DNA of 64,000 nt. Origin: a virus. The stretch lies in the UHGV virus genome UHGV-1384413; one strand, written 5' to 3'. The first letter of the stretch is position 1; each line of letters begins with the position of its first letter. Position numbers and translations under genes: made by a program. The notes beneath the pieces were generated by a model that was given only the letters and a program-made list of their open reading frames with translations, searched no databases and was not told the origin of the DNA. Shown here in pieces: positions 2,490 through 44,319 of the stretch.

Positions 2490-2755
2490 TACTCTTCCTT
2501 CATAGTTTCACCAAATACTTCGATACGAGCGTCAAGCTCTGTTGCTTTCAGCTCCCCAACAAAATCTTTCAGTTCTTTCTCGTCAAGATCGTATGCCCAC
2601 ACACAAGATGAGCATGCAGATTTCACGATTAGCAGTGTAGATACACGGCCTGACTCTGTAATCATGCTCACAATGGTTCCTACAGGGAACGTGTTGATAG
2701 CTTTTTTAACTGGGCGTTCAGCTTTAATTACTACCTCTGTTGCCATAAATACCAT
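2489..2755 (-). CDS. hypothetical protein (88 aa)
   Basis: Short ORF packed between neighbours. Confidence 0.45.
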   Translation of the reverse strand: MVFMATEVVIKAERPVKKAINTFPVGTIVSMITESGRVSTLLIVKSACSSCVWAYDLDEKELKDFVGELKATELDARIEVFGETMKEE

Positions 2756-2761
2756 CCTCTC

Positions 2762-4243
2762 TTACTTAGCGTACTCGATTAATTCCACAGTTTTCCCAAA
2801 GCTCGGGATATAATTTTTATTATACCCTTCGGTGAGAACCCATAAAGTATCGTACTTTTTCCACTTGTTGTCAACAGCCTTTTGTTCAAAGTTATGCTCA
2901 AAGTATAGGTCGGTCAGGACGATGACATCTTTTGCATTCGGTATATTGGCATCCAGATACTTGAACACGCAAGCAGCTGTTGTGCCCCATGTTGAGTGGA
3001 TCTCATAGTTGATCATCTCATCTATGTTACCGCGAGTGTATACTTTAACCTCTCCAACCTCAGTTGACCAACAGAACATTGTAACCTTAAACTCTTTATA
3101 CAGATTGCACAATCCGGTGATTTCATTGAACATTTTCTTTAAAGTTCTTTGAGAGATCGAGCCAGAAACGTCTAAAGCCACAACAATATCTATAGTGTTT
3201 TCCGGATTACGACCAGGAACAATAACGTGCTGGTTCTTGTTTATGGCCCCAACTTTTCGCATTGTGCTGGTCAAAGACCCAGATCGGCGACCAGGTTTTC
3301 TGTAGGTCAGTTCAGCCTTTCGTTTAGACAACATGCGTTGCTTAATAATGTCTATATAGTTGATTACAGGCTTACCTCTGTTCTTGACGAACTCACGCAC
3401 CGCCTCGGGGCAACGACCTCCGGAAGCTTGCATTGCTGCCTCCAGCATGTCACCAGAGTCCTGCATGGCCTGATCTTTATCAGATTGGCTGATTACAGGT
3501 TGTGGCTGATCATACCCCATAGCCTTTCCAAGATCATCACTGGTGCCACCGTTCCCGCTCATGTGATCATCGGTTTGTCGTTTATCTCCTTGAGAGTTCT
3601 CACCTTTACCGTTCTTACTTTTACCGTTATTCTGATCTCTTTGTTTATCGAGAACTGCATAGACGTTTTCAGCAATCCATCCATGAAACTTCATGTCGCA
3701 GTAGCAATTAGCTAAGAAGCCAAAAGGCTTACCTTTTACGAACGTAGTGCTTTTCCCCTTCGGGAAGAAAACACAAGGAGGCTTGCTAAAGTCAACCACA
3801 AGGCCTGTGTTGATAACGTGATCACAGGCAATATTGAACAGCTCCGGCTCAAAGCTTTTACCACGGACCAAATGATCGCAGATAATATGCCCCACCTCAT
3901 GTGACAGAAGAAAGGCCACCTCTTTCACAGATTTTGGAGAATAGAAAACCTCAGCCATCTCAAACTGCTCGTCAGTTAGAGAGGCTTTAAGAATGGTTTT
4001 GCGCTCATCTGCCAACCCCATAATAAACTCAGGGCTGTAATAGATGCGTTTATGGTCTGTTGCCATAGTGGAGCACCATGTGTGGTTTTCTACGAACTGC
4101 AACCCTGATAACAGTGTGCCATAAAACGGCAGCTTTTCAAGGAGATACATACGTGCAGCCTGCAACATTCTCAGGGCATCATCTTTTTGCGAGGCAATGA
4201 TTTCTGAACTTCTGCTATCCATTAAAACTCCAGAAGGGGCCAT
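2762..4243 (-). CDS. VWA-domain protein with N-terminal HExxH metallopeptidase-like motif
   Basis: 493 aa; HEVGH motif in N-terminal half; C-terminal VVALDVSGSIS matches VWA MIDAS motif (DxSxS); Gly/Asp-rich low-complexity linker. Confidence 0.7.
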   Translation of the reverse strand: MAPSGVLMDSRSSEIIASQKDDALRMLQAARMYLLEKLPFYGTLLSGLQFVENHTWCSTMATDHKRIYYSPEFIMGLADERKTILKASLTDEQFEMAEVFYSPKSVKEVAFLLSHEVGHIICDHLVRGKSFEPELFNIACDHVINTGLVVDFSKPPCVFFPKGKSTTFVKGKPFGFLANCYCDMKFHGWIAENVYAVLDKQRDQNNGKSKNGKGENSQGDKRQTDDHMSGNGGTSDDLGKAMGYDQPQPVISQSDKDQAMQDSGDMLEAAMQASGGRCPEAVREFVKNRGKPVINYIDIIKQRMLSKRKAELTYRKPGRRSGSLTSTMRKVGAINKNQHVIVPGRNPENTIDIVVALDVSGSISQRTLKKMFNEITGLCNLYKEFKVTMFCWSTEVGEVKVYTRGNIDEMINYEIHSTWGTTAACVFKYLDANIPNAKDVIVLTDLYFEHNFEQKAVDNKWKKYDTLWVLTEGYNKNYIPSFGKTVELIEYAK

Positions 4244-4255
4244 TGGCCCCTGTCA

Positions 4256-5242
4256 TTATTTAACGTGTTTGAAAATACTCGCCAACTCGGTCATCGTCAT
4301 GCGGGTGGTCTTCATAAGGTCTGTCATAGCTTTTTCCATAATCGGTGATACTACCATGAAGTTACCTTTAGTGAAACCTTTGTTCCAATCGGTTACCAAC
4401 AGAGGTTTGATTCCTGCCCCAAGACGCTCACCAGTTAAAGCACAGCATTTGCGGATGTACGCACTCTTAAATTGGCTGAAGGACAGATCAACTTTCATAC
4501 CTGCATCGTAGAACGTTTGGCAATAGAAAGTGTAAGCCTTGGCAATCTCAACATCATCAGGCAGTGCAGGAACCTCTTCTGCAACCTCCTCTTCGACCTC
4601 CTGAGGCTCTTTTTCCTCTTCAAAGGGCTGTTGCACCATTTCTTCAATTTCTTCTGTCACAGGCTCGTTTACGATGTCTGAAATGTGTTTGTTGGCTGCA
4701 CGCTCTGCCATGAAATTCTTAAAGTCCTGCATTGGTGACATATCTTCCTCCTCTTCGTCAAATAGTGCTAGTTTATCTTCTTCTGTCCCGTATTGCAAGA
4801 TGAAATCTTCAAAAGTATATTCATCTTTTAATTCCTCCATCCTCTCTTCGCTCAGGTGGAGCATCATTTGTTGGACAATTTTTCGATCAGTTTTGTCCTT
4901 AATCAAGATTGCGGTCGTTTTATCTACCAGACAATCCTTGAGAGAGTTGCACCGAAGTCCCACCACACAACAGTTATCAATTGCGTAAGGACCTTCATCG
5001 TTTATCCGCTCCAAAGATGGGTAGAACGGATTCCCCAGCCCGTTTTCATCTGTGTGCATGTCAAAAGGAATAAGGGTGTAGTCGCATACCCCCTCTCCTA
5101 AAAGTTTTTTACCGAATAGGAGGTATTCTTCCCACGACAGGTCGAACACTATACCTCGTTTTCGGGCATTATTCTGTTTGCGTCTGTATTTTTTGAGCAG
5201 GCGTTCTAGCTCTTCTGGTGTATAATATTTTTCAAGATTCAT
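4256..5242 (-). CDS. hypothetical protein with internal duplication and acidic linker
   Basis: Start moved to internal ATG (M66 of track ORF) because the longer ORF overlaps the divergent plus gene; two related segments (FDLSWEEY / VDLSFSQF) flank a Glu-rich linker. Confidence 0.5.
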   Translation of the reverse strand: MNLEKYYTPEELERLLKKYRRKQNNARKRGIVFDLSWEEYLLFGKKLLGEGVCDYTLIPFDMHTDENGLGNPFYPSLERINDEGPYAIDNCCVVGLRCNSLKDCLVDKTTAILIKDKTDRKIVQQMMLHLSEERMEELKDEYTFEDFILQYGTEEDKLALFDEEEEDMSPMQDFKNFMAERAANKHISDIVNEPVTEEIEEMVQQPFEEEKEPQEVEEEVAEEVPALPDDVEIAKAYTFYCQTFYDAGMKVDLSFSQFKSAYIRKCCALTGERLGAGIKPLLVTDWNKGFTKGNFMVVSPIMEKAMTDLMKTTRMTMTELASIFKHVK

Positions 5243-5315
5243 GAGTTGTCTCTTGTGCTCTGTAGGTGAAGAAATCTTATCAAGTGCCTCGACAGATGTC
5301 AACCTCAAAAACGTA

Positions 5316-5344
5316 TTGACTTTACTATAAATCCACGATATAGT
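5316..5344 (+). promoter_or_regulatory. sigma70-type promoter in divergent intergenic region
   Basis: TTGACT, 17-bp spacer, TATAGT about 40 bp upstream of ATG 5385; approximate coordinates. Confidence 0.5.
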
Positions 5345-5384
5345 GCACCCATTCGAAAGAAAACGAACACAGGAGCACTTAATC

Positions 5385-6284
5385 ATGGCAAATCTTAACA
5401 GCTTTAGCACTCGGTGGAAACAAGATATCACAACCAATCTCTCAGCAGGTGATATCCTTTCTGCAATTTACGAGGCTTTGGATGATAAAGCTACTTCAAA
5501 ATCGGTTTGTACCAACCCGCTAATTCCTATAGTAATGAAGGTTATTGAGCGTAGGCTGGTATCCGGATCTGATAAGTGGACATATCTGGATAATGGAGGC
5601 CACACTTACTCCAATGGCTATGTCGATATAAAAGTAGAATATGCGGTATCATATCGCCGGAGCGGCTCTGTAACTTTCAACTTCTCTGGTGGTTTCCGAT
5701 CTCTGGCAACTTCACCTTTTGTTTCCTCAGAGGAGAAGTTTGAACTTCCGTTCCTTTGGATGATGGCTAACGCGACAGGCAAAACCCCCGTAAGCATTCG
5801 CGTAAAATACAACTACAACGGATCTAGTAAGATCTATGCCGAGAGTGTCTCAGCAAGTTTTTATTTTGTGATGGGGGATGGAATCCTCAAACATATAAAG
5901 ATGTGCGATATGCATGATGTTATAAATGAAGTGACTGATAAGAATGTTCTGGTGAAGGATCTCAACAATTTTTATACACCTGGAGACTATTACGTCAACC
6001 GTCCACTGTGTATCTTTAATGCCGCACACCCTTTAGGTGAGTATCTGATCGCCAATAGCGATATTGCCAATAACCGCTTCGAGGTAGCAAGAGTGCAGAA
6101 TGAGGTGTTGACATCTTGCAAGAGCGGTGATAAGTTTACCGAAGAAGAGATGGGTGTTTTAGAAATGATGGGATATAAGTGTAGCCTTTGGGTGGATGAG
6201 GTGTTTAATGACGGCATCTACGGACAGGGTATTTACCCGTTAAAGAAGTATACTGATTCCAGTCTAATTTACGCGGAGATTTGA
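5385..6284 (+). CDS. hypothetical protein (299 aa)
   Basis: ATG at M15 of track ORF preceded by AGGAG; first gene of plus-strand operon. Confidence 0.55.
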   Translation: MANLNSFSTRWKQDITTNLSAGDILSAIYEALDDKATSKSVCTNPLIPIVMKVIERRLVSGSDKWTYLDNGGHTYSNGYVDIKVEYAVSYRRSGSVTFNFSGGFRSLATSPFVSSEEKFELPFLWMMANATGKTPVSIRVKYNYNGSSKIYAESVSASFYFVMGDGILKHIKMCDMHDVINEVTDKNVLVKDLNNFYTPGDYYVNRPLCIFNAAHPLGEYLIANSDIANNRFEVARVQNEVLTSCKSGDKFTEEEMGVLEMMGYKCSLWVDEVFNDGIYGQGIYPLKKYTDSSLIYAEI

Positions 6285-14571: not shown

Positions 14572-14906
14572 GTTTGTGGAGAAATATAGTTAACTACGTG
14601 TGCGGTAATCCAAATCCTGAAGAGAAGGATGTTGTGATTCACGATTTTACTAAAAGATCTCGTGAAAAAGACCTCCTGCTAACAAAGGTGATCGATAAAG
14701 ACCCTATAGGGGACTGGGCAGGGTTTGCGTTTACATCTGACAAATACACCTTTAACAAAGGTGACTACCTTGTTGTGGATTTTAACGAAGACATCGAGGG
14801 TGCTGAACCTTACTATCAGACCCTTATCGTTGCAGAGTGTGTTGAGCTCTCTGCAAACATGCATAGTTTGATTCTTTTTGAGCTTGACTCTGAAGACCTT
14901 GAGTAG
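14568..14906 (+). CDS. hypothetical protein (112 aa)
   Basis: ORF with 4-nt overlap to helicase gene. Confidence 0.5.
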   Translation: MSLWRNIVNYVCGNPNPEEKDVVIHDFTKRSREKDLLLTKVIDKDPIGDWAGFAFTSDKYTFNKGDYLVVDFNEDIEGAEPYYQTLIVAECVELSANMHSLILFELDSEDLE

Positions 14907-14966
14907 TAAGATGTGAGTCTAAAGGGGAGGAGTTCCTCCCCACAAAAACTAAGGAAGCACTAAACG

Positions 14967-15269
14967 ATGAAACGTTATAAACCATACACTTTTGAAATCG
15001 ATTTCGAACTTGACGATATGCTTACTGTGGAGGCTCAGGCAGTTGTCCAGTTGCCAGACCCGGAGTGCCGTGATTCTGATGTTGATTATTACGGATTTAG
15101 ACAAATTACCGATGTGCATGTTTACCACAACGGTGAAGAGGTGGACTTCCACCAACTGCCAAACGATATGCGCCACTCGATTTACAAACGGGCAGCACGT
15201 GAACTAGAGTCCTATCTGGATGCAGCAACAACAGCGGCTGCATTTGCTGAAGAGACAGGAGGTTTCTAA
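14967..15269 (+). CDS. hypothetical protein (100 aa)
   Basis: ORF with AAGGAAG RBS. Confidence 0.5.
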   Translation: MKRYKPYTFEIDFELDDMLTVEAQAVVQLPDPECRDSDVDYYGFRQITDVHVYHNGEEVDFHQLPNDMRHSIYKRAARELESYLDAATTAAAFAEETGGF

Positions 15270-15664
15270 TGATTACAGATGTGAAGATTATCCAATACCA
15301 CCTAACCAAATTAGAAGATGCTGAAAAAGAGCTTTCAGAAGTTCTGAACAGTGGGTATACTTTACTGACATGCTCCTGTTCAGACACATACATTGTGTGG
15401 ACACTTGCTAAGAAGGAAGAACCAGCCGGAATCTTGGTGCCAAACCCTAAGATTATTAGTGAGGTGGACTACTACTCTCAAGATGGCCTGCCAGAAGGCT
15501 GGGAAGCATGGGAAGGTGGTGAAAACCCTGCACCAGGTAAGTGGGTAAAATACAAACTACGTAGCGGTGCACAGTATGCTGACTACTCTGATGACCTAGA
15601 CTGGAGTCACTCTTCACCAGGATCATCTGCAAGTGCATATGATATTGTTGCTTTTCAGGAATAA
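15269..15664 (+). CDS. hypothetical protein (131 aa)
   Basis: ORF with AGGAGG RBS. Confidence 0.5.
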   Translation: MITDVKIIQYHLTKLEDAEKELSEVLNSGYTLLTCSCSDTYIVWTLAKKEEPAGILVPNPKIISEVDYYSQDGLPEGWEAWEGGENPAPGKWVKYKLRSGAQYADYSDDLDWSHSSPGSSASAYDIVAFQE

Positions 15665-15676
15665 GGAGAGAGTGTT

Positions 15677-16159
15677 ATGTCAGATTTTATGTGGAAGGTA
15701 GGTTATGCCTCTCCTGAAATGTGTGAGGCTTGCTTTGTGAAAATAGGCCGCGAGGATATTGACAAAGTGATCCTTAAGTTTCGTGATGTGTCTGTAATCG
15801 GCAACCGAGTTCTTAAGCACTTAAAGAATCTGAAGCTCACCAAGAAGAAGTTCTTCGGACTTTTCGAAGAGAAAGTTGATGCTTGGACCCATTGCATTCA
15901 GGAAGCTAAATCTCACTACAGTGCTATCGTTACTCCGGAACGGGTAGCCAAGATGGAAGGATTCATCAACAGCACGGAGTTTGAGTGCCTAAAGGCTGCC
16001 CTTGATAGCTATCCAAAGTGCCTCAAACACCTTGACAAGTATGTAGAAAAGGATGGTGAAATGTATCTCACCCTAGACGCATACTATGAGATGCAAGAAA
16101 TTTTAAATTTAGATTTGACATTGGTATCTACCGAGTATACAATAGGTATCCGGGTTTAA
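15677..16159 (+). CDS. hypothetical protein (160 aa)
   Basis: ORF with AAGGAGAG RBS; followed by terminator. Confidence 0.5.
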   Translation: MSDFMWKVGYASPEMCEACFVKIGREDIDKVILKFRDVSVIGNRVLKHLKNLKLTKKKFFGLFEEKVDAWTHCIQEAKSHYSAIVTPERVAKMEGFINSTEFECLKAALDSYPKCLKHLDKYVEKDGEMYLTLDAYYEMQEILNLDLTLVSTEYTIGIRV

Positions 16160-16165
16160 CACTAG

Positions 16166-16192
16166 GCCCTGCCCGAAAGGGTGGGGCTTTTT
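16166..16192 (+). terminator. intrinsic terminator (copy 1 of duplicated hairpin)
   Basis: GCCCTGCCC-gaaa-GGGTGGGGC hairpin plus TTTTT; identical hairpin recurs near 26325. Confidence 0.65.
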
Positions 16193-16210
16193 GCATTAGG
16201 AGACAGCAAA

Positions 16211-16975
16211 TTGAAATTTATCTACAAAGAACACTACCACAAAGGTGTTGTGTGGAGTCTATTTGACGGGTCTGGTGGTGCAGTTATTGACTGGGCAAAA
16301 GCTGGGTACCTGTGCCTGTGCTTTAATGCAGAAGGTGCTGACCACGGTAGTTATGCAGAGGTGATAACCGATCATCCTAACATTCACTATGTGGATTATT
16401 GGATTGATCCATGGTTCCCTCAAGAAACTTTTTGCATGTATCCAGCTCCAGACTTTATTCTTGCATTTCCTCCGTGCACGCATTTAGCAGTATCCGGAGC
16501 TGCACACTTTAAGAAAAAGCTGGCTAAGGATCCTCTGATCCAAATTAATGCTGTGAAAGATGCTCGGGTTGCAGAAGAGTTGGGAGAGATTTACGATTGC
16601 CCGTGGCATGTAGAGAACCCTGTAGGAGTTATGTCAACACTGTGGCGAAAACCTGATTACCGTTTTCATCCTTCGGATTATGGCGGGTATTTACCAGAGG
16701 ATGATGTAAACCCATGGTTTCCTGAATTTATAGCTCCACGTGATGCCTACCCAAAAATAACTTGCGGTTGGATAGGTAATGGATTTATAATCCCCGCCAC
16801 AAAACCTGTCCCGCAAATAGTTGATGCGGTTAGCGGTTATTCCATGCAACACGCTAAGCTAGGTGGAAAGAGTGCAAGGACGAAGATGATTCGAAGCCTT
16901 ACACCACGTGGCTGGGCAAGAGCTGTATTCTTAGCAAACGAGCCTGCAGTAAGGAGAAGAATTAATGGGCAGTAA
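16211..16975 (+). CDS. C5-cytosine methyltransferase-like protein
   Basis: Motifs in canonical order: I LFDGSGG (FxGxGG), IV FPPCTHLAVSG (PC catalytic Cys), VI HVENPVG (ENV); no in-frame ATG before motif I, so TTG start with AGGAG RBS chosen; track GTG start lies inside the terminator hairpin. Confidence 0.5.
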   Translation: MKFIYKEHYHKGVVWSLFDGSGGAVIDWAKAGYLCLCFNAEGADHGSYAEVITDHPNIHYVDYWIDPWFPQETFCMYPAPDFILAFPPCTHLAVSGAAHFKKKLAKDPLIQINAVKDARVAEELGEIYDCPWHVENPVGVMSTLWRKPDYRFHPSDYGGYLPEDDVNPWFPEFIAPRDAYPKITCGWIGNGFIIPATKPVPQIVDAVSGYSMQHAKLGGKSARTKMIRSLTPRGWARAVFLANEPAVRRRINGQ

Positions 16976-19043
16976 ATTCATGGCATCTGCATACAACCGT
17001 TTCGGTGAGCCAAACCCGAAAGCAACTAAGTATAAAAGTGGGGGAAGTGTGAAACGAGACTATCGTGATGAAAAAGAAGTTGAAACTGTAGAGACTGTTT
17101 TAGAAAATACTAAAATTGTCCCTGTTCCACAACAAAATATTGGACTGATGGCTGCACAATATTTTGGTGTACGATCATCGCTATCTCAAGAGGATGGTGT
17201 AACTGTTACTGCCACCTACTTCCCGTATTATGACCGCTACGGTAATCTATCCGGCTTTAAAAAGCGGGACTGGACAATCCCTAAAGAGCAAAGGGGCCAT
17301 TTCTCGGTTGTTGGCATAGTAAAGGCCAACTCCCAAATGTTTGGTCAAAAGCTGTGTGCATCCTCCAACAACCGTAAGCAGATTAACGTTTGTGAGGGAG
17401 AAGGTGATGTTATTGCAGCATGGCAGGCTGCATATCAGGTGCAAGTAAAAGGAATTCTCACCAATGCTAAAGCCCCAGCGAAGGTGAAGCAGTGGGCTAA
17501 AGAGGTCCAGGATGGGATCGATGCAGTTATCAACGGCGGCGATCTTGCAGGAAAACCCTGCCTACCTTTTGTTGGAATTAACTGCGGGTGTGCAAACGCA
17601 GTAGACACTTTTGCGAACAATGAGAAATTTATCCGTAGCTACGGAACAGTGGTCCTTGCAATGGACAACGATGCAGCTAACGAGGTAGAGAAGCAAAAAC
17701 ACGTTATCAAAGGTGTTGAAGCCACACATAATATCGCAGCATTTTTGATGGCTGATAACGTTTACCACGTGGAATACCCAGGTGAGGTAAACGACCCTGA
17801 TGGTGTAAAAGATATTCGTGACATGCTGAAGGCTAAAAAGCTGGAAGATATTGTCAACATGTTCCGTCACCCAGTCAAATATGTGCCTGATGCTGTATCT
17901 GATTTAGAAGACTTCTCCATTGAATCTCTTCGTAAGAAGACTTCCAATGGCGTGGATATTAGTGCAGAGTTCCCTAAACTGCAGAAGATGCTGAAAGGAC
18001 TCCACAAAGGCACCTTGATGATGCTGACAGGCCCGTCTGGCGGTGGTAAAACAACTGTAGCCAAGAAGCTGGAACATTGCATTGCAAGATACTTGATGGA
18101 TCCAACATGCCCTAAAGCTGATGATTATGAAGAGGATGATCGCCTGTGCCTGATTCACCTTGAAGAGGATCCTGAGGAAGCAATCAACTCTCTGTACGCT
18201 AACCAGCTGGGGTTTGATGTTAAAGAGTTTGTTGAAGACCCCAGTCAGTTCCTGACCGATCAGGAGCACGCTGAGATTCATCAATCTTGGGCCAAGGCCG
18301 GAAAAATCAAAGTGTTCAAGCATTTCGGCTCCATCCCTGTAGATGAGCTGATCACTAAGCTTAAACAAATGGTGTGCCTGTATCACTGCCGTTACATTGT
18401 GCTGGATCACTTGTCTATGGTGATTTCAGGGCTTAATGTTAAGGATGAGCGTAAAGAGCTTGACATGGCTATGACTCAACTAGCCGCGTTCTGTAAGCAG
18501 TTTAATGTGTTTATCTTGGTGATTGCTCACCTGAAGCGCACAGAGATTGTACCTCCGAAGGATAAGGATGGAAATCCGTTACCTTTCTGGTACCCTGTAC
18601 GAAAAGAGAACCTTCGTGGTAGTGCCGGATTGGAGCAACTTAGCTGGGTGGTTGTCGGGGTAGAGGCAGAGGAGATGGTGGATCGTTCCCGTGGACGTGT
18701 CCGACTGGTAGGTCTTAAAAACCGCCCAGCAAAAACCTTAGGTATTGCAGACACTCTAGTTATGGATCCCCACACAGGCAAGTTCCATGATGCCAGCAAC
18801 TGGTACTGGGACAAAGAAATGCAGATGTTTACAGACGGGGAAGGTGGGGAGGTTGTTTGGAGACCTCAGGCTATGTTTGAGGATCAGGAGCATGCAGTTG
18901 TAGAAACACCTGTAGGCAAGGTTGTGGCTGATAAGGTTATAACCCCTGCTGTTAACCCTGTTGACACACAGGAAGATCTTCAGTATGATGATCCGTCCTC
19001 TAACCACGTTCCTGGTTTTGAAGACGACGAAACACCTTTTTAA
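16965..19043 (+). CDS. primase-helicase (Toprim primase plus DnaB-like helicase)
   Basis: 692 aa; N-terminal acidic Toprim-like motifs (CEGEGDV, LAMDNDAANE); Walker A LTGPSGGGKTT in C-terminal half. Confidence 0.75.
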   Translation: MGSKFMASAYNRFGEPNPKATKYKSGGSVKRDYRDEKEVETVETVLENTKIVPVPQQNIGLMAAQYFGVRSSLSQEDGVTVTATYFPYYDRYGNLSGFKKRDWTIPKEQRGHFSVVGIVKANSQMFGQKLCASSNNRKQINVCEGEGDVIAAWQAAYQVQVKGILTNAKAPAKVKQWAKEVQDGIDAVINGGDLAGKPCLPFVGINCGCANAVDTFANNEKFIRSYGTVVLAMDNDAANEVEKQKHVIKGVEATHNIAAFLMADNVYHVEYPGEVNDPDGVKDIRDMLKAKKLEDIVNMFRHPVKYVPDAVSDLEDFSIESLRKKTSNGVDISAEFPKLQKMLKGLHKGTLMMLTGPSGGGKTTVAKKLEHCIARYLMDPTCPKADDYEEDDRLCLIHLEEDPEEAINSLYANQLGFDVKEFVEDPSQFLTDQEHAEIHQSWAKAGKIKVFKHFGSIPVDELITKLKQMVCLYHCRYIVLDHLSMVISGLNVKDERKELDMAMTQLAAFCKQFNVFILVIAHLKRTEIVPPKDKDGNPLPFWYPVRKENLRGSAGLEQLSWVVVGVEAEEMVDRSRGRVRLVGLKNRPAKTLGIADTLVMDPHTGKFHDASNWYWDKEMQMFTDGEGGEVVWRPQAMFEDQEHAVVETPVGKVVADKVITPAVNPVDTQEDLQYDDPSSNHVPGFEDDETPF

Positions 19044-26884: not shown

Positions 26885-27082
26885 ATGATTTATCGAATCC
26901 GTGTGAGAGAAGATGCACCAGGTTGTTACTTTGACTGGCGTGGGTGGTGGTTTCTCCACCCAATGGATGGACTCACAGATAGAATGCTAGATGCTGCCCT
27001 TTACACAGATACTGACATAGAGTATAATCTTTACTTGAAGGATGGTATCGATAACGGCCTGTTTGAAGCAATTCCTGCGTAA
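26885..27082 (+). CDS. hypothetical protein (65 aa)
   Basis: ORF with AGGAGG RBS. Confidence 0.45.
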   Translation: MIYRIRVREDAPGCYFDWRGWWFLHPMDGLTDRMLDAALYTDTDIEYNLYLKDGIDNGLFEAIPA

Positions 27083-27147: not shown

Positions 27148-27573
27148 ATGATTTATGAAATGCCAAAACTGATTCGTGACGATGCACGAAACGCCCACAC
27201 CTTTATTATGGGCAAGCGCATGGATATTATTTGTCACAAAGACTTCTGGGAAGGGAGCTACTTCACAGAATATTTTGGAAAAATGGATGATGGCCTACTG
27301 ATCCAGTTTTACACCGATGCGGAAAACAACATTAGTTGGGAGTTCGAGACCGAAGATATCCATAAACTTTTCACCTTCCTAGACATTAAGGTTAAGGCCA
27401 AGTTTGAAGAAGGTGAGTGCGACGATTGTGGATTTTATGAGGTAACAGATTTCTATCTTCCGAGCGGTAAAAACCTTTACTATGAAAGCCACTTCGGTAA
27501 CTCCAATATGCCACAGTGCTGGACTGAGTTTTTTGAAATTGTGGAAGAGGAGCTGGAATATCGTGATTATTGA
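27148..27573 (+). CDS. hypothetical protein (141 aa)
   Basis: ORF with GGAG RBS; immediately upstream of macro-domain gene. Confidence 0.5.
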   Translation: MIYEMPKLIRDDARNAHTFIMGKRMDIICHKDFWEGSYFTEYFGKMDDGLLIQFYTDAENNISWEFETEDIHKLFTFLDIKVKAKFEEGECDDCGFYEVTDFYLPSGKNLYYESHFGNSNMPQCWTEFFEIVEEELEYRDY

Positions 27574-28021
27574 TACTGTGGAGGGAGATTTAATCTCCCT
27601 TTTTAAGAGCGGTGCTGGTCACCTGATCCACGGTTGTAACTGCTTCCACACAATGGGTAAGGGTGTAGCGAAACAGATTGCCCGTGAGTTCCCTCAAGCA
27701 TTGGAAGCTGATAAAATGACTATGCACGGTTGCCTAAGTAAACTGGGCGCGTTCTCCCGCTGGGAGCACTTATCTCCGAGAGGTATTGTCTACGGAATAA
27801 ATCTGTATACTCAGTTCTACCCAGGGCCTAATGCTGAATATTTCTCAATACTGAAAGGCTTTGAGCGAGTCAATGAAGTATTTGAGGGGTCGATTTTACC
27901 ATTCTACATCCCTAAGATCGGGTGCGGCATAGGTGGTTTGAAGTGGGAACATGTAGAGGACATTATTAACCTTGCCACTTTTGATATAGATATTATCGTG
28001 GTGGAGTACAAAGAGTGTTGA
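27563..28021 (+). CDS. macro-domain protein, TARG1/DarG-like
   Basis: GDLISLF...HLIHGCNCFHTMGKGVAKQI and IPKIGCGIGGLKWEHV collinear with TARG1/OARD1-type macro motifs as I recall them; start set at in-frame GTG (V28 of track ORF) overlapping upstream stop. Confidence 0.6.
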   Translation: MIIDTVEGDLISLFKSGAGHLIHGCNCFHTMGKGVAKQIAREFPQALEADKMTMHGCLSKLGAFSRWEHLSPRGIVYGINLYTQFYPGPNAEYFSILKGFERVNEVFEGSILPFYIPKIGCGIGGLKWEHVEDIINLATFDIDIIVVEYKEC

Positions 28022-28046
28022 CAGCTATATTTTAAGGTGGTATAGT
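28018..28046 (+). promoter_or_regulatory. sigma70-type promoter
   Basis: TTGACA, 17-bp spacer, TATAGT; approximate coordinates. Confidence 0.5.
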
Positions 28047-28075
28047 CACCACAACGATTAAGACAGAGGAGCACT

Positions 28076-28276
28076 ATGGAGACTAAAATCTTAATTCTAG
28101 CTGTGATAGATACAACAGAAGGAGCCATGTTTGAATCTGCAGGAGGGTATTTCTACCTGCCCTACGGAAAAAGAACTTCCGAGCCGAGTAAAGATTCAAT
28201 CCTCAAAGTGTTCCCGTGTGCTTTCTGGCTGGAGATCCTGGTAGAAGATTGCAGAGGATTGGGGAGAGAATTATGA
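28076..28276 (+). CDS. hypothetical protein (66 aa)
   Basis: ORF with GAGGAG RBS. Confidence 0.45.
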   Translation: METKILILAVIDTTEGAMFESAGGYFYLPYGKRTSEPSKDSILKVFPCAFWLEILVEDCRGLGREL

Positions 28277-28467
28277 GAAACAAGAAAGAGCTTTACTCTG
28301 GTGAGTGGATAAACGATCAACAGGTAGGAGAGGTAACCTGCTTCCGGTGCTTTACTCGGTACAATCTTAAAACTGCACCAAAAAGTGTTCCAAAGACTGA
28401 TGGTTATTACATAAAAGAACCTCATTGCCCAAAATGCAAATGCCGAGTATACTGGAGTAACCTGTAA
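28273..28467 (+). CDS. small zinc-ribbon protein
   Basis: ATG at M20 of track ORF with GGGAGAG RBS; CxxC...CxxC pairs (CFRC, CPKC). Confidence 0.45.
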   Translation: MRNKKELYSGEWINDQQVGEVTCFRCFTRYNLKTAPKSVPKTDGYYIKEPHCPKCKCRVYWSNL

Positions 28468-28471
28468 AAGG

Positions 28472-28499
28472 TTGACATCTGAAAACTGCGGTGTATAAT
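28472..28499 (+). promoter_or_regulatory. sigma70-type promoter
   Basis: TTGACA, 16-bp spacer, TATAAT; approximate coordinates. Confidence 0.55.
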
Positions 28500-29847: not shown

Positions 29848-29878
29848 TACTTGAAAATCCCTGGCACATCAAGTATAA

Positions 29879-29905
29879 GGAGGATTTCTAAAATGGATTT
29901 CCTCC
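29879..29905 (+). promoter_or_regulatory. hairpin pairing the RBS with an anti-RBS across the start codon
   Basis: GGAGGA ... TCCTCC inverted repeat enclosing the ATG of the 35-codon ORF; approximate coordinates. Confidence 0.35.
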
Positions 29906-30000
29906 TTTTGATATTTTACCTGGCCGGATATTTTAAAATCCTTAGAAAATCAGAAAATGGATCGAAAACTAAAATGGATTTTTCAAGACAGGCGCGATAA
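29893..30000 (+). CDS. small hydrophobic peptide (35 aa), tentative
   Basis: ATG with AGGAGG 7-8 nt upstream; MDFLLLIFYLAGYF...; not in ORF track (below 60 aa); approximate coordinates. Confidence 0.3.
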   Translation: MDFLLLIFYLAGYFKILRKSENGSKTKMDFSRQAR

Positions 30001-30156
30001 GATGTGCTGCTCATTCTATCGTTCGCACCGTACTTTAAGTCACTATTCCAGATTTTCCGCACATACTCTCACCCTTCTACCAGAACTTTCCCAGCTTACC
30101 TCTGACCTTTTATAACAATAAGTCCATTATTATCAGAAAGTTTCGGCACATCTCTC

Positions 30157-30340
30157 TCGGTACTCGATCTGTTTTTCATTTCAAAGACCTGATTTTCTGA
30201 AAATTTTTCTCGATAAATTTCTTAGTACTCGATCTGTTTTTCGTTTTCTGAATCAGATTTTCTGGAAATCGTTCCGGCGCTCGACCTAAAATTTTTGGGG
30301 ACGAAATCGATTTTTCGTTTTCAGAAATGGATTTTTAAAA
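30157..30340. repeat. tandem imperfect direct repeats (about 66-bp units) in AT-rich non-coding region
   Basis: GTACTCGATCTGTTTTTC(A/G)TTT...ATTTTCTG(A/G)AAAT occurs twice in tandem, with further degenerate copies (TCGATTTTTCGTTTTC); approximate coordinates. Confidence 0.5.
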
Positions 30341-30487
30341 TTTATATATGGGAATATTTTATTGGATATTGTTTTATAGGAAATTGTTACGGAGGGTAAT
30401 TAGCATGCTAATTAAATTTATTAAATGCGAGGAGTTCTCATTTAGAATTTTGAATGATAATCATTCTCGTTTGCAGAATAACGGGCA

Positions 30488-30522
30488 CCCCCGGTGATTG
30501 TCTCCCGGCCCCTGTTGCCCCG
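30488..30522. repeat. GC-rich element, copy A
   Basis: CCGGTGATTGTCTCCC core shared with 30623-30659 and, inverted, 39596-39640. Confidence 0.5.
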
Positions 30523-30622
30523 GCTTGTTATTATAGTATCACACAGGACAAAGAAAGCAAGGATTTTTTGCATGAATTTTTAAACGATAATGATAACAGT
30601 TCTCATCTCATGCAACGCCCAT

Positions 30623-30659
30623 CCCCGGTGGTTGTCTCCCCCGTCACCGGTGCCTGCCG
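30623..30659. repeat. GC-rich element, copy B
   Basis: CCGGTGGTTGTCTCCCCCGTCACCGGTGCCTGCC; about 90 percent identical to the reverse complement of 39596-39640. Confidence 0.5.
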
Positions 30660-30868
30660 TCCTTCCGATAAGTATATTGTGCCACCTAGCGGGGCCGCTG
30701 TCAACACCTTTTCAAAAAATTTTCTAACCTGGTTCGTCCACCGCCGCAACCTGGCGGGGCCAACCATGCCGGGGGGCAAAATTATAAAAGTGGTTGCGCC
30801 TGGTCCTGAAAGGCAGTATAAAAGAATCAGGAAAGAGAGATACCCAACAAGGCGAGGAGGAAAATAAA

Positions 30869-31039
30869 ATGAAAGGTAAAAATAAAAAAGATATCTCAAT
30901 GAACTGCAAGGATATTAATGCAAAACGTGAAAAAGCGGCCCGTGATGCCCTGGTCAACTGGTTGGACTATGAAAAAAGGATGGTTGAAGCTGCAGGAGCT
31001 GCCGCCGGAGCTTTTTACCCTAAAAATAATTTAAGATAG
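30869..31039 (+). CDS. small basic protein (56 aa), tentative
   Basis: ATG at M26 of track ORF with GAGGAGG RBS. Confidence 0.35.
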   Translation: MKGKNKKDISMNCKDINAKREKAARDALVNWLDYEKRMVEAAGAAAGAFYPKNNLR

Positions 31040-31128
31040 CTATTGACAACGTGGCGAGTAACCTGGTATTCTTATCCACAAGATGAACAACACCGCTACA
31101 CCATGCAGCTAACAGAGAGGAAAACAGC

Positions 31129-40950: not shown

Positions 40951-41539
40951 GTCTGCTCTTCTCCTACCATAAACGGCCCTACCTGGCAAGTGGAATAATT
41001 GACTAGCCATCAATCCCACACACTGTATAAATATACATGGAAAATAACTATTGCATAATTTTTCATTGTGTGGTAGCAAGGCCATTTTTACCCGTTTTCT
41101 CTCCCAAAATTGCACGTAATGCCGCTATTGCACAAAATTTAACCTGATGCACATCTTCAACATCTTGTCAATAACTAAAAATCTTTATAAGTCATACACT
41201 TACACAACCATAAAGCCGTGTTCTACGTGAAAAATCGAGTATAACTATAGCCGCCAGATCTCAGAATTTACGTACGTTCACCATTCTATAGCCTGCAAAG
41301 TATTTATTCCAACCACAGAATAACGGAATAGTCAATACCTGCATAAAATAATTATTCGTGTAAACTGCATAACATAAATCAGCTCAGGTGTCAACATTTT
41401 TCGTAAGCAGTTCGAAATTGTCACGATAAGTTATTATACACAAAGAAATCTTTAGTCGTCTAATGGTTACTATACATTACTAATCTGACTGGAATCATTA
41501 GATGACTAAGAGAAAGATAAGAAATAATTAATAATGTAA

Positions 41540-41850
41540 TTGTTTTACCTGTAACAATAAGGCAACTATGCAAACGAATGGCATGGCGCGACGGAGTCGC
41601 GACATAATATAAAAGCAGTAACCATCACCCCCGTGATAGTTTTTCTGCAATCTATTACTCAGATCATAGTTGCCTTGTATTTAGTTAATCATGACATAAC
41701 AAGCAAGGCAACTATAGATCTTCTAATAGTTGCCCTGCTTTTATATTATGTCATAGAAACGCCCGAAGGGGTGACCTAGTCACCTGGCATAGCCAGCGAA
41801 AGATTATTATCTTGTTAATTGTTTTCATGCAAACGAATGTCATGGCTTAT
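41540..41850. repeat. iteron / inverted-repeat cluster (candidate origin or regulatory hub)
   Basis: 9-mer GGCAACTAT in alternating orientation near 41560, 41667, 41707, 41726; 18-bp perfect inverted repeat GACATAATATAAAAGCAG near 41601 and 41735; flanking direct repeats ATGCAAACGAATG(G/T)CATGGC near 41568 and 41826; small palindromes GCGACggaGTCGC, GGTGACctaGTCACC. Confidence 0.6.
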
Positions 41851-42596
41851 CATCTATGCGTGAACTATCCAGGCGTAAACAGTCTATGCGGGAACAATCT
41901 ATACGGGAACAGTGAGGCATGCAATAGTAACAACTGTTATTGTATCCGGTGTGTTGAGTATGCCCGGTGTGTCACTATTATGTCACATTATGTCAGACAA
42001 GTTTTTCTCCTCTTTGTCAAGTGCTGCATGAAAAATTTACAAACTGGTATGGTAGCATTTTTGCGGCCCTGTTTACATTCAGAAATGTATGTATAATCCT
42101 TGGTGTGTGGGCGTTTAGACGTCTGGACGGTCAGAAGTCCGCAGGTCAATATCTAATCTATTGGTTGCTAACTATATCCCACACAAATAGTAAGAAATAT
42201 AATTGTTATGTGCGTAAACAGTAACCCATGTTATCAATCCCTGTATGTATCGCCAGTGGTGCGCATAATGGGTATTATGTTAAATTGCCCGTAATGATAA
42301 CTATTCTCACAATGATAGGTATTCTCATTCATCCCCACAAGATAGATTGCAAATGTTGTGCCACTGTGTGAACGGCCTGGTCTATTAATTTGCCTCACTG
42401 CCTCGATATTTGAGAATTATTATAAAAATGAGAAGTATTCCCATTCCGTCCGCCTGGCAGCACTCCTGTAGGACAAGCACAAAATCGGGGCATAACTGAC
42501 CTGTTCAGATATTTCTGGCTGACTCTTCAGGTCTGTGTGGGAAAAGCCAACCTCTCCGGCGGCGGGGTAGGGGTCAATTAAAAAATTTATGCGGTG

Positions 42597-42652
42597 TATG
42601 AAACCCTCTTCAGGCAAGGTGTGTATTATGGTATGAAACCCTCTTCAGGCAA
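42597..42652. repeat. two perfect 21-bp direct repeats
   Basis: TATGAAACCCTCTTCAGGCAA twice, 35 bp apart; related CTCTTCAGG and CGGCGGGGTAGGGGT motifs recur nearby; approximate coordinates. Confidence 0.55.
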
Positions 42653-43411
42653 TGATATTTGTGGGTGTGATATTTGCTGGAAAGCCAGATATGACGGGAC
42701 TCCCGGCGGGGCAGGGGTAGTACAGACAGGGAAAATGTGGGGATGTAGTTGGGGAAATTGATCAGACAGGTAGAGTATGGAATATGTTATGAATATGTTA
42801 AATATGGAGGGTGAATATCTGTAGGATTTGTGTGTAAAATCAAAGACTTAAGTGGTGTTGTGGTATTTTCTATAAATAATTCAAGTTTAATAGGTAATAT
42901 TTGTCTCTATCCACTTTGTGTGGTAAACAGATTTAGATGAAATTGGTTTACAAGTGTATACATAATATACAAATTAAAGATACAAGAAACCCCCCTCCCC
43001 CTTCGGCTACCATTCACCTTTTCCTCTGACTGGTACTTAAACACTTATTCAGACTCTTCAGGTTATCACCCATATACTATATGGCAGTGACTGGTGTCCT
43101 CCGGCCCCTCTTTCGTCACCCGTCCGCTTCGCCAAGCTAATGCCATAGCCAAATGTTCGGTTGTTCACCCTGTTCACTCAGGTGTATCTCCATACCCCTT
43201 CAAACCGAAGAGAACAGAAAACCCGAATTACTCGGTAAAAGAAAAGAGAAGAACTTAATTTTATCAAGATAGGCAAGAATGTCAAGGGATGACTGCTCAC
43301 TAAACAAGCAAACAGTCATGTGTGGTAGGTAAGTGATTGTAGTGGTGGAAAATTTAGTTGAAAGATGTGTTATAGTGCTCCCAGCACTTTAGCCGGGCAG
43401 CTAATTGTGTG

Positions 43412-43627
43412 TCAGTCCAGAGGTTCATCCTCCACTTCACTGAAATCAATGTTCATGGTCTCTTCCCAACCATCGATCTCAGCACAAGAGTGAAGTTCTT
43501 TAGGGTTTACTCCCAAAGCCTCAGCAACAGAGTCTATATTTAACACCTCTGGCAGGTATGATTCATCAAATTCAAGGTAAATCAGGCCACGAGTGTTGTC
43601 AGCCCCACCAAATATTTCTATTTTCAT
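43412..43627 (-). CDS. hypothetical acidic protein (71 aa)
   Basis: ORF with GAGGAG RBS; last gene of minus-strand block. Confidence 0.5.
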   Translation of the reverse strand: MKIEIFGGADNTRGLIYLEFDESYLPEVLNIDSVAEALGVNPKELHSCAEIDGWEETMNIDFSEVEDEPLD

Positions 43628-43746
43628 GAAATCTCCTCTGGAAATGAGAGTGTGAACAGGGTTATACGTTCCAATATGATGGAATTATGCACGTTTGCCT
43701 CTTCAGGCCATGCTTTAGCATGATAAACTTATGTGGGCTCGGTGCT

Positions 43747-43959
43747 TCATAGTCTCCCACCTCTGAACTCTTCGTGCTCAGGCATAATAGAGAACCAGAT
43801 ATCTACGATGTCTTCCCACGTTAGGTCATCAGCCTCAGGATCTACCTGGAGCGAAGATGGAGAATCTTCAGAATCGAAGTTTTCCTCTTTCACTGGCTCA
43901 GCCAAGGGACATATGGTCACTCCTTTGGATGTCTCTTCAGATGCATGTGTGTTGATCAT
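43747..43959 (-). CDS. hypothetical acidic protein (70 aa)
   Basis: Minus ORF preferred over overlapping plus ORF on composition and operon direction. Confidence 0.4.
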   Translation of the reverse strand: MINTHASEETSKGVTICPLAEPVKEENFDSEDSPSSLQVDPEADDLTWEDIVDIWFSIMPEHEEFRGGRL

Positions 43960-44265
43960 GTTCCACCCGTGAGTATTCCGGCAACAGCTGCTATGGACGT
44001 GATGATCATCAGGATCACCACTAAAACCTCTGACAATGTTTTCATTGTGTATTCCATATTATCCAAACAATGTGTGGATATTATCACAGGAGCGGTAATG
44101 TGTCAACAGAAGCGCCGCGAGGGTTTGGTTAAAATCCGAGCGTATGGTGATTTGGGTCAAAACGGACGTGCGTTCTCGCTACGCTCGAAATAGAGAGTTG
44201 TTTACAGGCCGTCCTTAAACGCTCTGTAATAAGATTATCCATCTAAGGTATGCAATCGTGCACCA

Positions 44266-44295
44266 GATAAAGAAAAGGACGCCACAGAGCGTCCT
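44266..44295 (-). terminator. intrinsic terminator (minus strand)
   Basis: GGACGC-cacaga-GCGTCC hairpin followed on the minus strand by a T-run; approximate coordinates. Confidence 0.45.
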
Positions 44296-44319
44296 AGGTG
44301 CCTTAAATTTGATATTTTG

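Follow-up and report, generated by a model that had tools for sequence, protein, structure and literature searches.

We believe, with a probability of roughly 0.55, that the macro-domain gene at 27563..28021 (+) encodes an orphan antitoxin-like ADP-ribosylglycohydrolase of the Tk.4/AdfM family, which undoes the ADP-ribosylation of DNA by DarT2. The gene lies in a window (the whole stretch of DNA analysed, 64,000 nt) from an rV5-like E. coli phage of the Vequintavirus type that is 97% identical to phage B9-1 and has a 96%-identical relative in the genome of NHEP1. It begins with a GTG codon, preceded 10 nt upstream by a GAGGAG Shine-Dalgarno-like element, its start overlaps the end of the upstream gene, stop codon included, by 11 nt, and the product of 152 aa contains GDL...HGCNCFHTMGKGVA plus IPKIGCGIGGLKWE. 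The ORF, the motifs and the neighbours that had been listed in a previous reading made without database searches (hereafter, the sequence-only reading) were all found in place. Two other starts are used in GenBank relatives, namely ATG 27482 (179 aa) and ATG 27653 (122 aa), and both were rejected in favour of GTG 27563, since all homologs start at the equivalent position (MIIDTVxGDL, with ATG there in RB49 and T4), the equivalent codon is the annotated start in rV5_ev147, the beta-1 strand begins at residue 2 in the AlphaFold model of the GTG-27563 product, and a start at ATG 27482 would create a 92-nt overlap with the upstream gene. In the Vequintavirus records of GenBank the gene is labelled either "macro domain protein" or "phosphatase".

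The assignment of the 152-aa protein to the macro domains is far beyond chance. The Pfam Macro profile (PF01661) matched it at E 1.3e-7 with 32 bits, the curated gathering score being 22, and the match spanned profile positions 1-118 of 118. PHROG 335 matched at E 1e-60 and the PADLOC model of DarG at E 2e-14, the latter match being limited to positions 4-141 of the 329 in the profile. The AlphaFold (AF2) model, with a pLDDT of 96.5 and a pTM of 0.91, predicts a three-layer alpha/beta/alpha macro fold. When this model was submitted to Foldseek, 177 PDB matches were obtained at E<=1e-3, and the best 50 of these 177 were macrodomains or designed enzymes on a macro-type scaffold. Superposition was best on TARG1, Poa1p and DarG (TM 0.71-0.82), with TARG1/OARD1 as the best structural match (Foldseek E 3e-10, TM 0.76/0.82). 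As for the class, the closest solved relatives were DarG, BT1257, SCO6735, TARG1 and Poa1p. The family profile scored members of the ALC1-like/TARG1 class at E values from about 4e-19 to 7e-16 (Mtb DarG, 2e-18; SCO6735, 3e-18; TARG1, 1.5e-17; Poa1p, 5e-16; Taq DarG, 7e-16), as against ~5e-3 for MacroD-type and coronavirus Mac1 domains, and on these values a MacroD-type or viral Mac1-type assignment was rejected. In a single-sequence search, the top PDB match was Mtb DarG (4e-7). The protein belongs to the ALC1-like/TARG1/DarG class. The sequence-only reading had proposed a TARG1/DarG-type macro domain, to be checked by HMM search and by superposition; the Pfam match above the curated threshold, the family profile and the fold ranking agree with each other and with that proposal. 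With TARG1/OARD1 (PDB 4J5R/4J5S) the protein shares the class and the order of the motifs, the identity being ~24%.

Among phage proteins, it can be aligned over its full length with Tk.4 of T4, at 41-42% identity over 150 aa (E 1e-32 in a collection-wide tblastn and 5e-38 in a local search), and it is 70% identical to Tk.4 of RB49. T4 Tk.4 and the macro protein both fall in PHROG 335 and have the motifs HGCNCFHTMG, NLYTQFxPGPN and IGxGIG in common, Gln included. The name AdfM (anti-DarT factor Macrodomain) was given to T4 Tk.4 in 2025 for the effect of its loss: tk.4 was the single hit of a transposon screen on a DarTG2 host, and a clean knockout made T4 DarTG2-sensitive, so that the evidence is genetic (bioRxiv 10.1101/2025.11.20.689424). 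For a second and independent phage macrodomain, PhiKZ AdfM, removal of DarT2 ADPr from DNA has been demonstrated biochemically (PMC13309987). Like T4 Tk.4/AdfM, the protein described here is of ~150 aa, consists of a single macro domain and is encoded by a stand-alone gene with no toxin partner (no darT toxin gene adjoins it). In both phages the gene stands among small early-type genes and its translation is coupled to that of the gene before it. Unlike T4 tk.4, the gene is found in the Vequintavirinae and not in the Straboviridae, and it has no vs/tk neighbours. The sequence-only reading had taken the gene for a candidate reverser of ADP-ribosylation-based defence, and homology to a protein that T4 needs against DarTG2 backs this view. 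The literature search yielded no paper linking DarTG2 to the Vequintavirus macro gene. While the gene had been read correctly, its kind was already known; the macro-domain label in GenBank relatives and the published phenotype of the T4 homolog had been missed.

The key residues of the protein are H23, N26, K33, N80, Y82, T83, Q84, P117, G120, G122 and G125. It had been noticed from the sequence that the catalytic Lys and Asp of TARG1 were not obviously conserved, and this was confirmed by the alignments: the Lys84-Asp125 dyad is absent, Q84 being aligned with TARG1 K84 and DarG K80, and G124 with TARG1 D125. Since PTKK of Mtb DarG aligns with LYTQ, the catalytic Lys of DarG is Gln in the macro protein, while the equivalent of DarG N22 is kept as N26. 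Both N26 and Q84 are invariant across 69 homologs, and Q84 sits in NLYTQ, within the strictly conserved motif N-x-Y-T-Q. Moreover, H23, N26, K33 and Q84 align with H24, N27, K34 and Q85 of SCO6735 (PDB 5E3B), the likeness extending to the Gly-rich phosphate-binding loop, and judging from these alignments Q84 and N26 would make up an active site of the SCO6735 type. It is known that SCO6735, with its Gln, acts as a hydrolase on thymidine-linked ADPr-DNA and can rescue cells exposed to DarT, that activity is lost in the mutants Q85A and N27S, and that a long mobile loop bearing Lys89 and Lys94 contributes to the activity on DNA (PMC9411070). The different chemistry suspected in the sequence-only reading thus finds a counterpart in a Gln/Asn site that is active on thymidine-ADPr DNA. 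The two proteins are, however, only ~27% identical, and the phage protein has 5-7 residues fewer in the loop that follows Q84 (FYPGPN vs HGMKTGSKGAPV) and is without the five-residue-longer mobile loop that carries K89 and K94. Also, SCO6735 is encoded on a bacterial chromosome and controlled by DNA damage, whereas the macro gene is a phage gene. The DNA-binding Lys at K33 is not a feature of the family, because the consensus at that position is Ala or Ser.

The proposed substrate is the same as that of DarG (PDB 5M3I, 5M31) and of the DarG-like PhiKZ gp104 AdfM, in both of which the position of the Gln is occupied by the catalytic Lys (DarG K80, PhiKZ K78). The protein has Q and G where TARG1 has the canonical catalytic residues K84 and D125, and on that account it might instead be a non-catalytic binder or stoichiometric inhibitor, sequestering ADP-ribose derivatives or blocking the DarT toxin directly. 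In vitro, the Q85A mutant of SCO6735 has lost catalysis but continues to inhibit DarT by interacting with it (PMC9411070). We consider this very improbable. The invariant Gln in N-x-Y-T-Q and the invariant Asn26 are conserved in the way that catalytic residues are expected to be, the Gln and Asn of SCO6735 are needed for hydrolysis (PMC9411070), and the C-terminal domain with which DarG binds DarT is absent from the 152-aa macro protein.

Reversal of DNA ADP-ribosylation is one of two activities documented in the family, the second one being that of an ADP-ribose-1''-phosphate phosphatase. RES-domain NAD+ phosphorylases, among them the aRES defence, produce ADPR-1''-P, and a phosphatase of the Poa1p/Adpp type would turn this product into ADPR. 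Its benefit to the phage would be a restored or detoxified NAD+ pool and not the repair of DNA. Members of the family are labelled "phosphatase" or "Poa1p-like" in GenBank and PHROG, and yeast Poa1p, which has the IHxCNC motif in common with the macro protein, ranks among its best matches both in sequence and in fold. In this region IHSCNCNGSWGGGIA of the macro protein aligns with IHGCNCFHTMGKGVA of Poa1p, so that H23 is kept and T30 stands opposite Poa1p S30 (the Poa1p residues compared, H23 and S30, are the mutants named in PDB titles). It has been reported that Adpp of Vibrio phage Gary dephosphorylates ADPR-1P, as followed by LC-MS, and that NARP1-AP does not overcome aRES without it (bioRxiv 10.64898/2026.01.28.702374). 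Like Adpp, the macro protein belongs to PHROG 335 and carries the HxCNC motif and the Gln. The NARP1-linked side of our comparison consisted of one sequence, gp176 of Vibrio phage Achelous, a stand-in for Gary Adpp that holds its operon position in the same Adps-macro-Namat arrangement. This protein is a homolog of the macro protein (35% identity by tblastn, E 4e-14; 32% in a MAFFT alignment), and the two matched similar numbers of phage records (2,711 by gp176 and 2,810 by the macro protein) with the same host breakdown.

In contrast with these likenesses, the Adpp-type phosphatase needed both Adps and Namat in order to work (bioRxiv 10.64898/2026.01.28.702374), and the macro gene is outside any Adps-Namat operon, its neighbours being small unknown genes. 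Pfam searches of 20 larger ORFs from the rest of the window gave no match to Adps or Namat, and the genome annotation of NHEP1 lists no ribose-phosphate pyrophosphokinase or NAMPT-like gene. Similarly, neither these 20 ORFs nor the NHEP1 annotation contained NADAR/AdfN, ADP-ribosyltransferase or NARP1 genes. The absence of NARP1 genes from the window ORFs scanned and from the NHEP1 annotation argues against an Adpp role. Furthermore, the macro protein is nearer to T4 Tk.4 (42%), which is anti-DarTG2 in a phage without NARP1, than to the NARP1-linked Achelous protein (32%), and it does not have the insertion of 6-7 residues that the latter shows in the loop after the Gln. On the other hand, T4 Tk.4 is about as distant from the Achelous protein (36%) as from the macro protein (42%), so function is not readable from identity alone, and by these identities the phage macro family appears to be a continuum. 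We therefore infer from a phage without NARP1 and a protein of the short-loop T4 form that reversal of DarT2 DNA ADP-ribosylation is the most likely role; the phosphatase activity, although unlikely, is a live rival.

DNA could also be one of several substrates, or a minor one, of a broad ADP-ribose eraser acting on RNA or protein. The candidate substrates would include uracil-linked ADPr RNA, the mRNA ADP-ribosylation of CmdTAC-type systems, Glu/Asp-linked protein ADPr and the O-acetyl-ADPr produced by a Sir2-like enzyme of the phage itself. Uracil-linked ADPr is stripped from RNA by TARG1, DarG and SCO6735 alike (PMC13036486), and proteins are also substrates of SCO6735 and TARG1 (PMC9411070). 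Moreover, some records of the family are labelled "O-acetyl-ADP-ribose deacetylase", and a "Sir2 NAD-dependent deacetylase" is annotated in NHEP1 beyond the region of the window. However, the deacetylase labels are automatic annotations, and the only genetic phenotype known in the Tk.4 family is anti-DarTG2, which makes a broad eraser, in our opinion, an improbable alternative. It is conceivable, though we advance this tentatively and with more doubt than conviction, that the short-loop Tk.4 subgroup acts as a general "C1''-linkage" ADP-ribose hydrolase with a water-mediated Gln/Asn site, and that AdfM and Adpp are one bifunctional family. Were this true, one 17-kDa early protein could strip DarT2 ADP-ribose from DNA thymidine and also cleave further products of NAD+, for example ADPR-1''-phosphate or uracil-ADPr RNA, at least two classes of defence would be blunted (DarTG2, RES/aRES-type, RNA-targeting ADP-ribosyltransferases), and the loop insertion after the Gln would tune the substrate preference.

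The surroundings of the gene were also analysed. A sigma-70 promoter-like site at 27000..27028 (+; TTTACA-17-TATAAT, 11/12, a consensus match only) lies 5' of a translationally coupled pair composed of the gene for a 141-aa acidic protein (27148..27573, +; matched by PHROG 8157) and the macro gene, the latter identified by Pfam, PHROG, PADLOC, T4/RB49 homology, AF2 and Foldseek. A second consensus match (28018..28046, +; TTGACA-17-TATAGT with TG, 11/12) overlaps the stop codon of the macro gene and would start the next transcription unit. It is followed by a 66-aa gene (28076..28276, +; matched by PHROG 15268) and by a 64-aa CxxC zinc-ribbon gene (28273..28467, +; Phage_zn_bind_2, PF23903, Pfam E 8e-23), beyond which a third site with a perfect match to the consensus (28472..28499, +; TTGACA-16-TATAAT, 12/12) would open the next small-gene unit. 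The tRNA and Rfam scans of the 64,000-nt window gave no match. The 141-aa, 66-aa and zinc-ribbon neighbours of the sequence-only reading are therefore real genes, and the early-gene layout that it had proposed fits the near-consensus promoter-like sites at 27000, 28018 and 28472. The zinc-ribbon protein is 77% identical to RB49p090, which is encoded directly 3' of RB49 tk.4. This downstream gene is thus common to RB49 tk.4 and the macro gene but not to T4, where unrelated small genes (DUF7202, DUF7438) are found at the position. The slot between the macro and zinc-ribbon genes is variable, with no gene in RB49 and two in rV5_ev147. Considering that T4 does without the zinc-ribbon protein, that the unit containing its gene has a promoter-like site of its own and that the slot in between varies, an obligatory partnership with the macro protein was rejected; the pair is more likely a co-transferred block.

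The macro allele of rV5_ev147 is only 79% identical, whereas the flanking genes are 86-98% identical. In the comparison with this divergent allele, dS was 1.31 and dN/dS 0.11, which indicates that the protein is under purifying selection, and positive selection on the gene was rejected on the same values. The divergence in rV5_ev147 points to recombinational replacement by an old allele and not to adaptive divergence.

If the macro protein reverses DarT2 DNA ADP-ribosylation, the most plausible course of events would be as follows. The gene would be transcribed early by the host RNA polymerase, probably from the sigma-70-type promoter at 27000 and together with the 141-aa gene. The macrodomain would bind the ADP-ribose set by a DarT2-type toxin on thymidine N3 of single-stranded phage DNA and cut the C1''-N bond. 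ADP-ribose would be set free and the DNA could be replicated again, with the result that a DarTG2-type abortive defence would fail. Catalysis would be of the SCO6735 type and would not depend on the Lys of DarG and TARG1: Gln84, itself held by Asn26, would position both the transition state and the distal ribose, with a bound water as the proton donor.

Since the catalytic Lys of DarG and PhiKZ AdfM is replaced in T4-type AdfM by an invariant Gln, the two proteins that carry the name AdfM probably differ in chemistry. In addition, AdfM of T4 and Adpp of Gary appear, on the matches obtained, to form one homologous phage family present in about 2,800 phage genomes, and annotations cannot safely be transferred within this AdfM/Adpp family before its substrate specificity has been mapped. 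Neither the Gln/Lys split nor the AdfM-Adpp kinship is raised in the two AdfM papers (bioRxiv 10.1101/2025.11.20.689424, PMC13309987), and we regard both as useful refinements that bring no new kind of system. The macro gene would extend the orphan-antitoxin strategy of the AdfM type from T4-like and nucleus-forming phages to the Vequintavirinae, which are used in therapy cocktails and belong to the BASEL collection, and it predicts that the Vequintavirinae would be naturally resistant to DarTG2.

The segment at 27148..28467 holds four genes, all on the + strand: a 141-aa gene (27148..27573), the 152-aa macro gene (27563..28021), a 66-aa gene (28076..28276) and a 64-aa CxxC gene (28273..28467), whose ATG overlaps the stop codon of the 66-aa gene. 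The genes other than the macro gene are the small neighbours listed in the sequence-only reading, and the macro-protein motifs that it quoted are found verbatim in the 152-aa product. The macro gene begins with GTG, in an 11-nt overlap with the upstream stop codon, and GenBank relatives give it three different starts: ATG 27482 in NHEP1 (179 aa), GTG 27563 in rV5_ev147 (152 aa) and ATG 27653 in B9-1 (122 aa). The start at GTG 27563 is supported because, besides the rV5_ev147 annotation, every homolog begins at the equivalent N-terminal position (an ATG in RB49 and T4), strand beta-1 starts at residue 2 in the structure model of the 152-aa protein, and the alternatives are worse. The B9-1 start shortens the protein so far that HGCNC, which holds the essential Asn, is lost. 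For the 141-aa upstream protein, no family or fold was detectable in searches including Pfam and PADLOC.

The product had been described as a TARG1/DarG-type macro domain, and profile, PDB and fold matches bore this out. Pfam Macro scored 32 bits (cutoff 22), PHROG 335 matched at 1e-60, and the PADLOC DarG model at 2e-14, with the macro part of the model alone being covered. A single-sequence PDB search gave the Mycobacterium tuberculosis DarG macrodomain as top match (4e-7), and a profile built from 69 homologs matched BT1257 (4e-19), M. tuberculosis DarG (2e-18), SCO6735 (3e-18), TARG1 (1.5e-17), Poa1p (5e-16), Taq DarG (7e-16) and coronavirus Mac1 (5e-3). The AlphaFold2 model was very confident (pLDDT 96.5, pTM 0.91); Foldseek placed TARG1 (E 3e-10, TM 0.76/0.82), Poa1p and DarG at the top, and Tk.4 of Acinetobacter phage 133 was among the best matches to viral models. 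Together these matches place the protein in the ALC1-like/TARG1 class of macrodomains.

The catalytic Lys and Asp of TARG1, already noted as not obviously conserved, are replaced: Gln84 occupies the TARG1 K84/DarG K80 position in all alignments, and Gly124 that of TARG1 D125. The replacement is not decay: N26 and Q84 are invariant across the 69 homologs, and H23, Y82 and T83 are conserved in at least 90%. T4 Tk.4 itself has FNLYTQFQPGPN, and the Gln is also found in SCO6735 and BT1257, within NMIGQHG. SCO6735 hydrolyses thymidine-linked ADPr on DNA and can rescue cells exposed to DarT, whereas the mutants Q85A and N27S have no activity; the mechanism proposed for it is water-mediated, with the distal ribose positioned by Gln (PMC9411070). 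The conservation of Gln and Asn, taken with the activity of SCO6735, argues that the site is of a known, active, Lys-independent type, so that the different chemistry allowed for in the sequence-only reading would be that of SCO6735. Unlike SCO6735, the window protein lacks the longer mobile loop bearing K89 and K94.

Homologs were found by tblastn in 2,810 phage records, with RB49 Tk.4 at 70% identity (E 2e-64) and T4/T2 Tk.4 at 41% (E 1e-32). In T4, tk.4 was the sole significant hit of a transposon screen on a DarTG2-expressing host, and a clean knockout sensitised the phage to DarTG2, the gene being named adfM (bioRxiv 10.1101/2025.11.20.689424). Our literature search found no published test of any Vequintavirus macro protein. 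Most likely, at a probability of about 0.55, the window protein acts as a Gln/Asn-type macrodomain enzyme that clears thymidine in phage DNA of DarT2-type ADP-ribose. The original observation is confirmed and its anti-defence interpretation supported.

A second activity is on record for the family. In Vibrio phage Achelous, the homolog gp176 (35% identical by tblastn at E 4e-14, 32% when aligned with MAFFT) has a "ribose-phosphate pyrophosphokinase" gene on one side and a "nicotinamide phosphoribosyl transferase" gene on the other, as annotated, forming an Adps-macro-Namat operon (3132-6138 of the Achelous sequence, L006). A macro-domain gene is associated with the operon in 15% of NARP1-carrying phages; Adpp of Vibrio phage Gary dephosphorylates ADPR-1''-phosphate, and this activity lets NARP1 overcome the aRES defence, but only jointly with Adps and Namat (bioRxiv 10.64898/2026.01.28.702374). 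A search with the Achelous protein returned 2,711 records, against 2,810 for the window protein, with the same host breakdown; pairwise MAFFT identities were 42% for window-T4, 32% for window-Achelous and 36% for T4-Achelous. The near-equal searches indicate that AdfM-type and Adpp-type proteins are one family. The main rival, that the window protein is an ADPR-1''-phosphate phosphatase like its relative Adpp, nevertheless appears unlikely: no NARP1 genes were found among the window ORFs scanned, nor annotated anywhere in the genome of NHEP1 (96% identical), and the post-Gln loop, NLYTQFxPGPN, is short, as in rV5, RB49 and T4, whereas Achelous gp176 has the long form NxY[G/S]QY plus 6-7 residues. 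The loop is a weak discriminator, because the long form also occurs in 4MG gp089 (3980-4474 of the 4MG sequence, L009), an orphan not linked to NARP1. Both features favour the AdfM role in the window phage.

Escherichia phage B9-1 shares 97.4% identity with the 2.8 kb surrounding the macro gene. These 2.8 kb match 120 phage records, nearly all of them from rV5-like Vequintavirus genomes, whose existing labels for the gene are "macro domain protein", "phosphatase", "O-acetyl-ADP-ribose deacetylase" and "Poa1p_like family". The gene follows rIIA/rIIB, helicase, primase and DNA polymerase and is embedded in a long series of small genes of unknown function. At 27000, 28018 and 28472 there are promoter-like sites that match the consensus at 11-12 of 12 positions (26 such sites in the region, against 14.5 +/- 4.7 in shuffles); they fit, but do not prove, early transcription by host RNA polymerase, and suggest that the 141-aa and macro genes form one unit and the 66-aa and Zn-ribbon genes the next.

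The CxxC product is a Zn-ribbon protein (Phage_zn_bind_2, PF23903), 77% identical to that encoded directly downstream of RB49 tk.4. The macro and Zn-ribbon block (27563-28467) corresponds to 2501-3140 of the Krischvirus RB49 (L003), at 70% and 77% protein identity, and is thus common to Vequintavirus and Krischvirus; these identities suggest lateral movement from one E. coli myophage to another, unrelated one. How many small genes stand between the two differs among phages: none in RB49, one in the window and two in rV5_ev147. The Zn-ribbon was not counted as a required partner because T4 has unrelated small genes there. Against rV5_ev147 (L005:3501-3959) the macro gene has diverged further than any other gene of the block (76.5% nucleotide and 79% protein identity; dS 1.31), while its flanking genes show 86-94% nucleotide identity and dS 0.13-0.70. 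Together with a dN/dS of 0.11, this indicates two old macro alleles in Vequintavirus and recombinational replacement under purifying selection.

Other loci were also recorded. The stretch 29848-31040 (about 1.2 kb) has only short, unconvincing ORFs, no annotated CDS in B9-1, a long terminator-like hairpin at 30291-30328, and no match in tRNA and Rfam scans. At 41100-44300 the coding strand switches across about 3 kb that lack convincing ORFs, show a GC-skew sign change and have no Rfam match. This region has two perfect direct copies of the 22-nt GTATGAAACCCTCTTCAGGCAA, 35 nt apart at 42596 and 42631, the motif ATAGTTGCC in both orientations (41552-41743) and a perfect inverted repeat of 18 nt (41601/41735). 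It is probably the counterpart of the transposon-free intergenic region of about 2 kb reported for the related phage Bas54, and could serve as an origin or in regulation. On the - strand, 2762-5437 encodes a protein in which DUF2201 metallopeptidase-like and VWA-like domains are combined, and an adjoining 392-aa ORF had no Pfam match; relatives carry the annotation 'ATPase' in this region. In the Bas54 study, the MoxR ATPase bas54_0063, possibly the same locus, is reported to be an anti-defence gene that counters the predicted system DS-28. Beyond the window, NHEP1 (14696-18549, L008) carries a 'Sir2 NAD-dependent deacetylase' and a nucleotide pyrophosphohydrolase adjoining an RNA ligase/phosphoesterase/ATPase cluster. 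This is a further module of the phage with a link to NAD+/ADP-ribose, and it could be a source of O-acetyl-ADP-ribose as a substrate for the macrodomain.

The family, the anti-DarTG2 phenotype in T4 and the Gln chemistry of SCO6735 are already published. What the comparison of sequences adds to the AdfM papers is that the T4-type and PhiKZ-type proteins sharing the name AdfM differ at the catalytic residue, and that AdfM and Adpp belong to a single large phage family, within which homology alone is an unsafe basis for transferring function.
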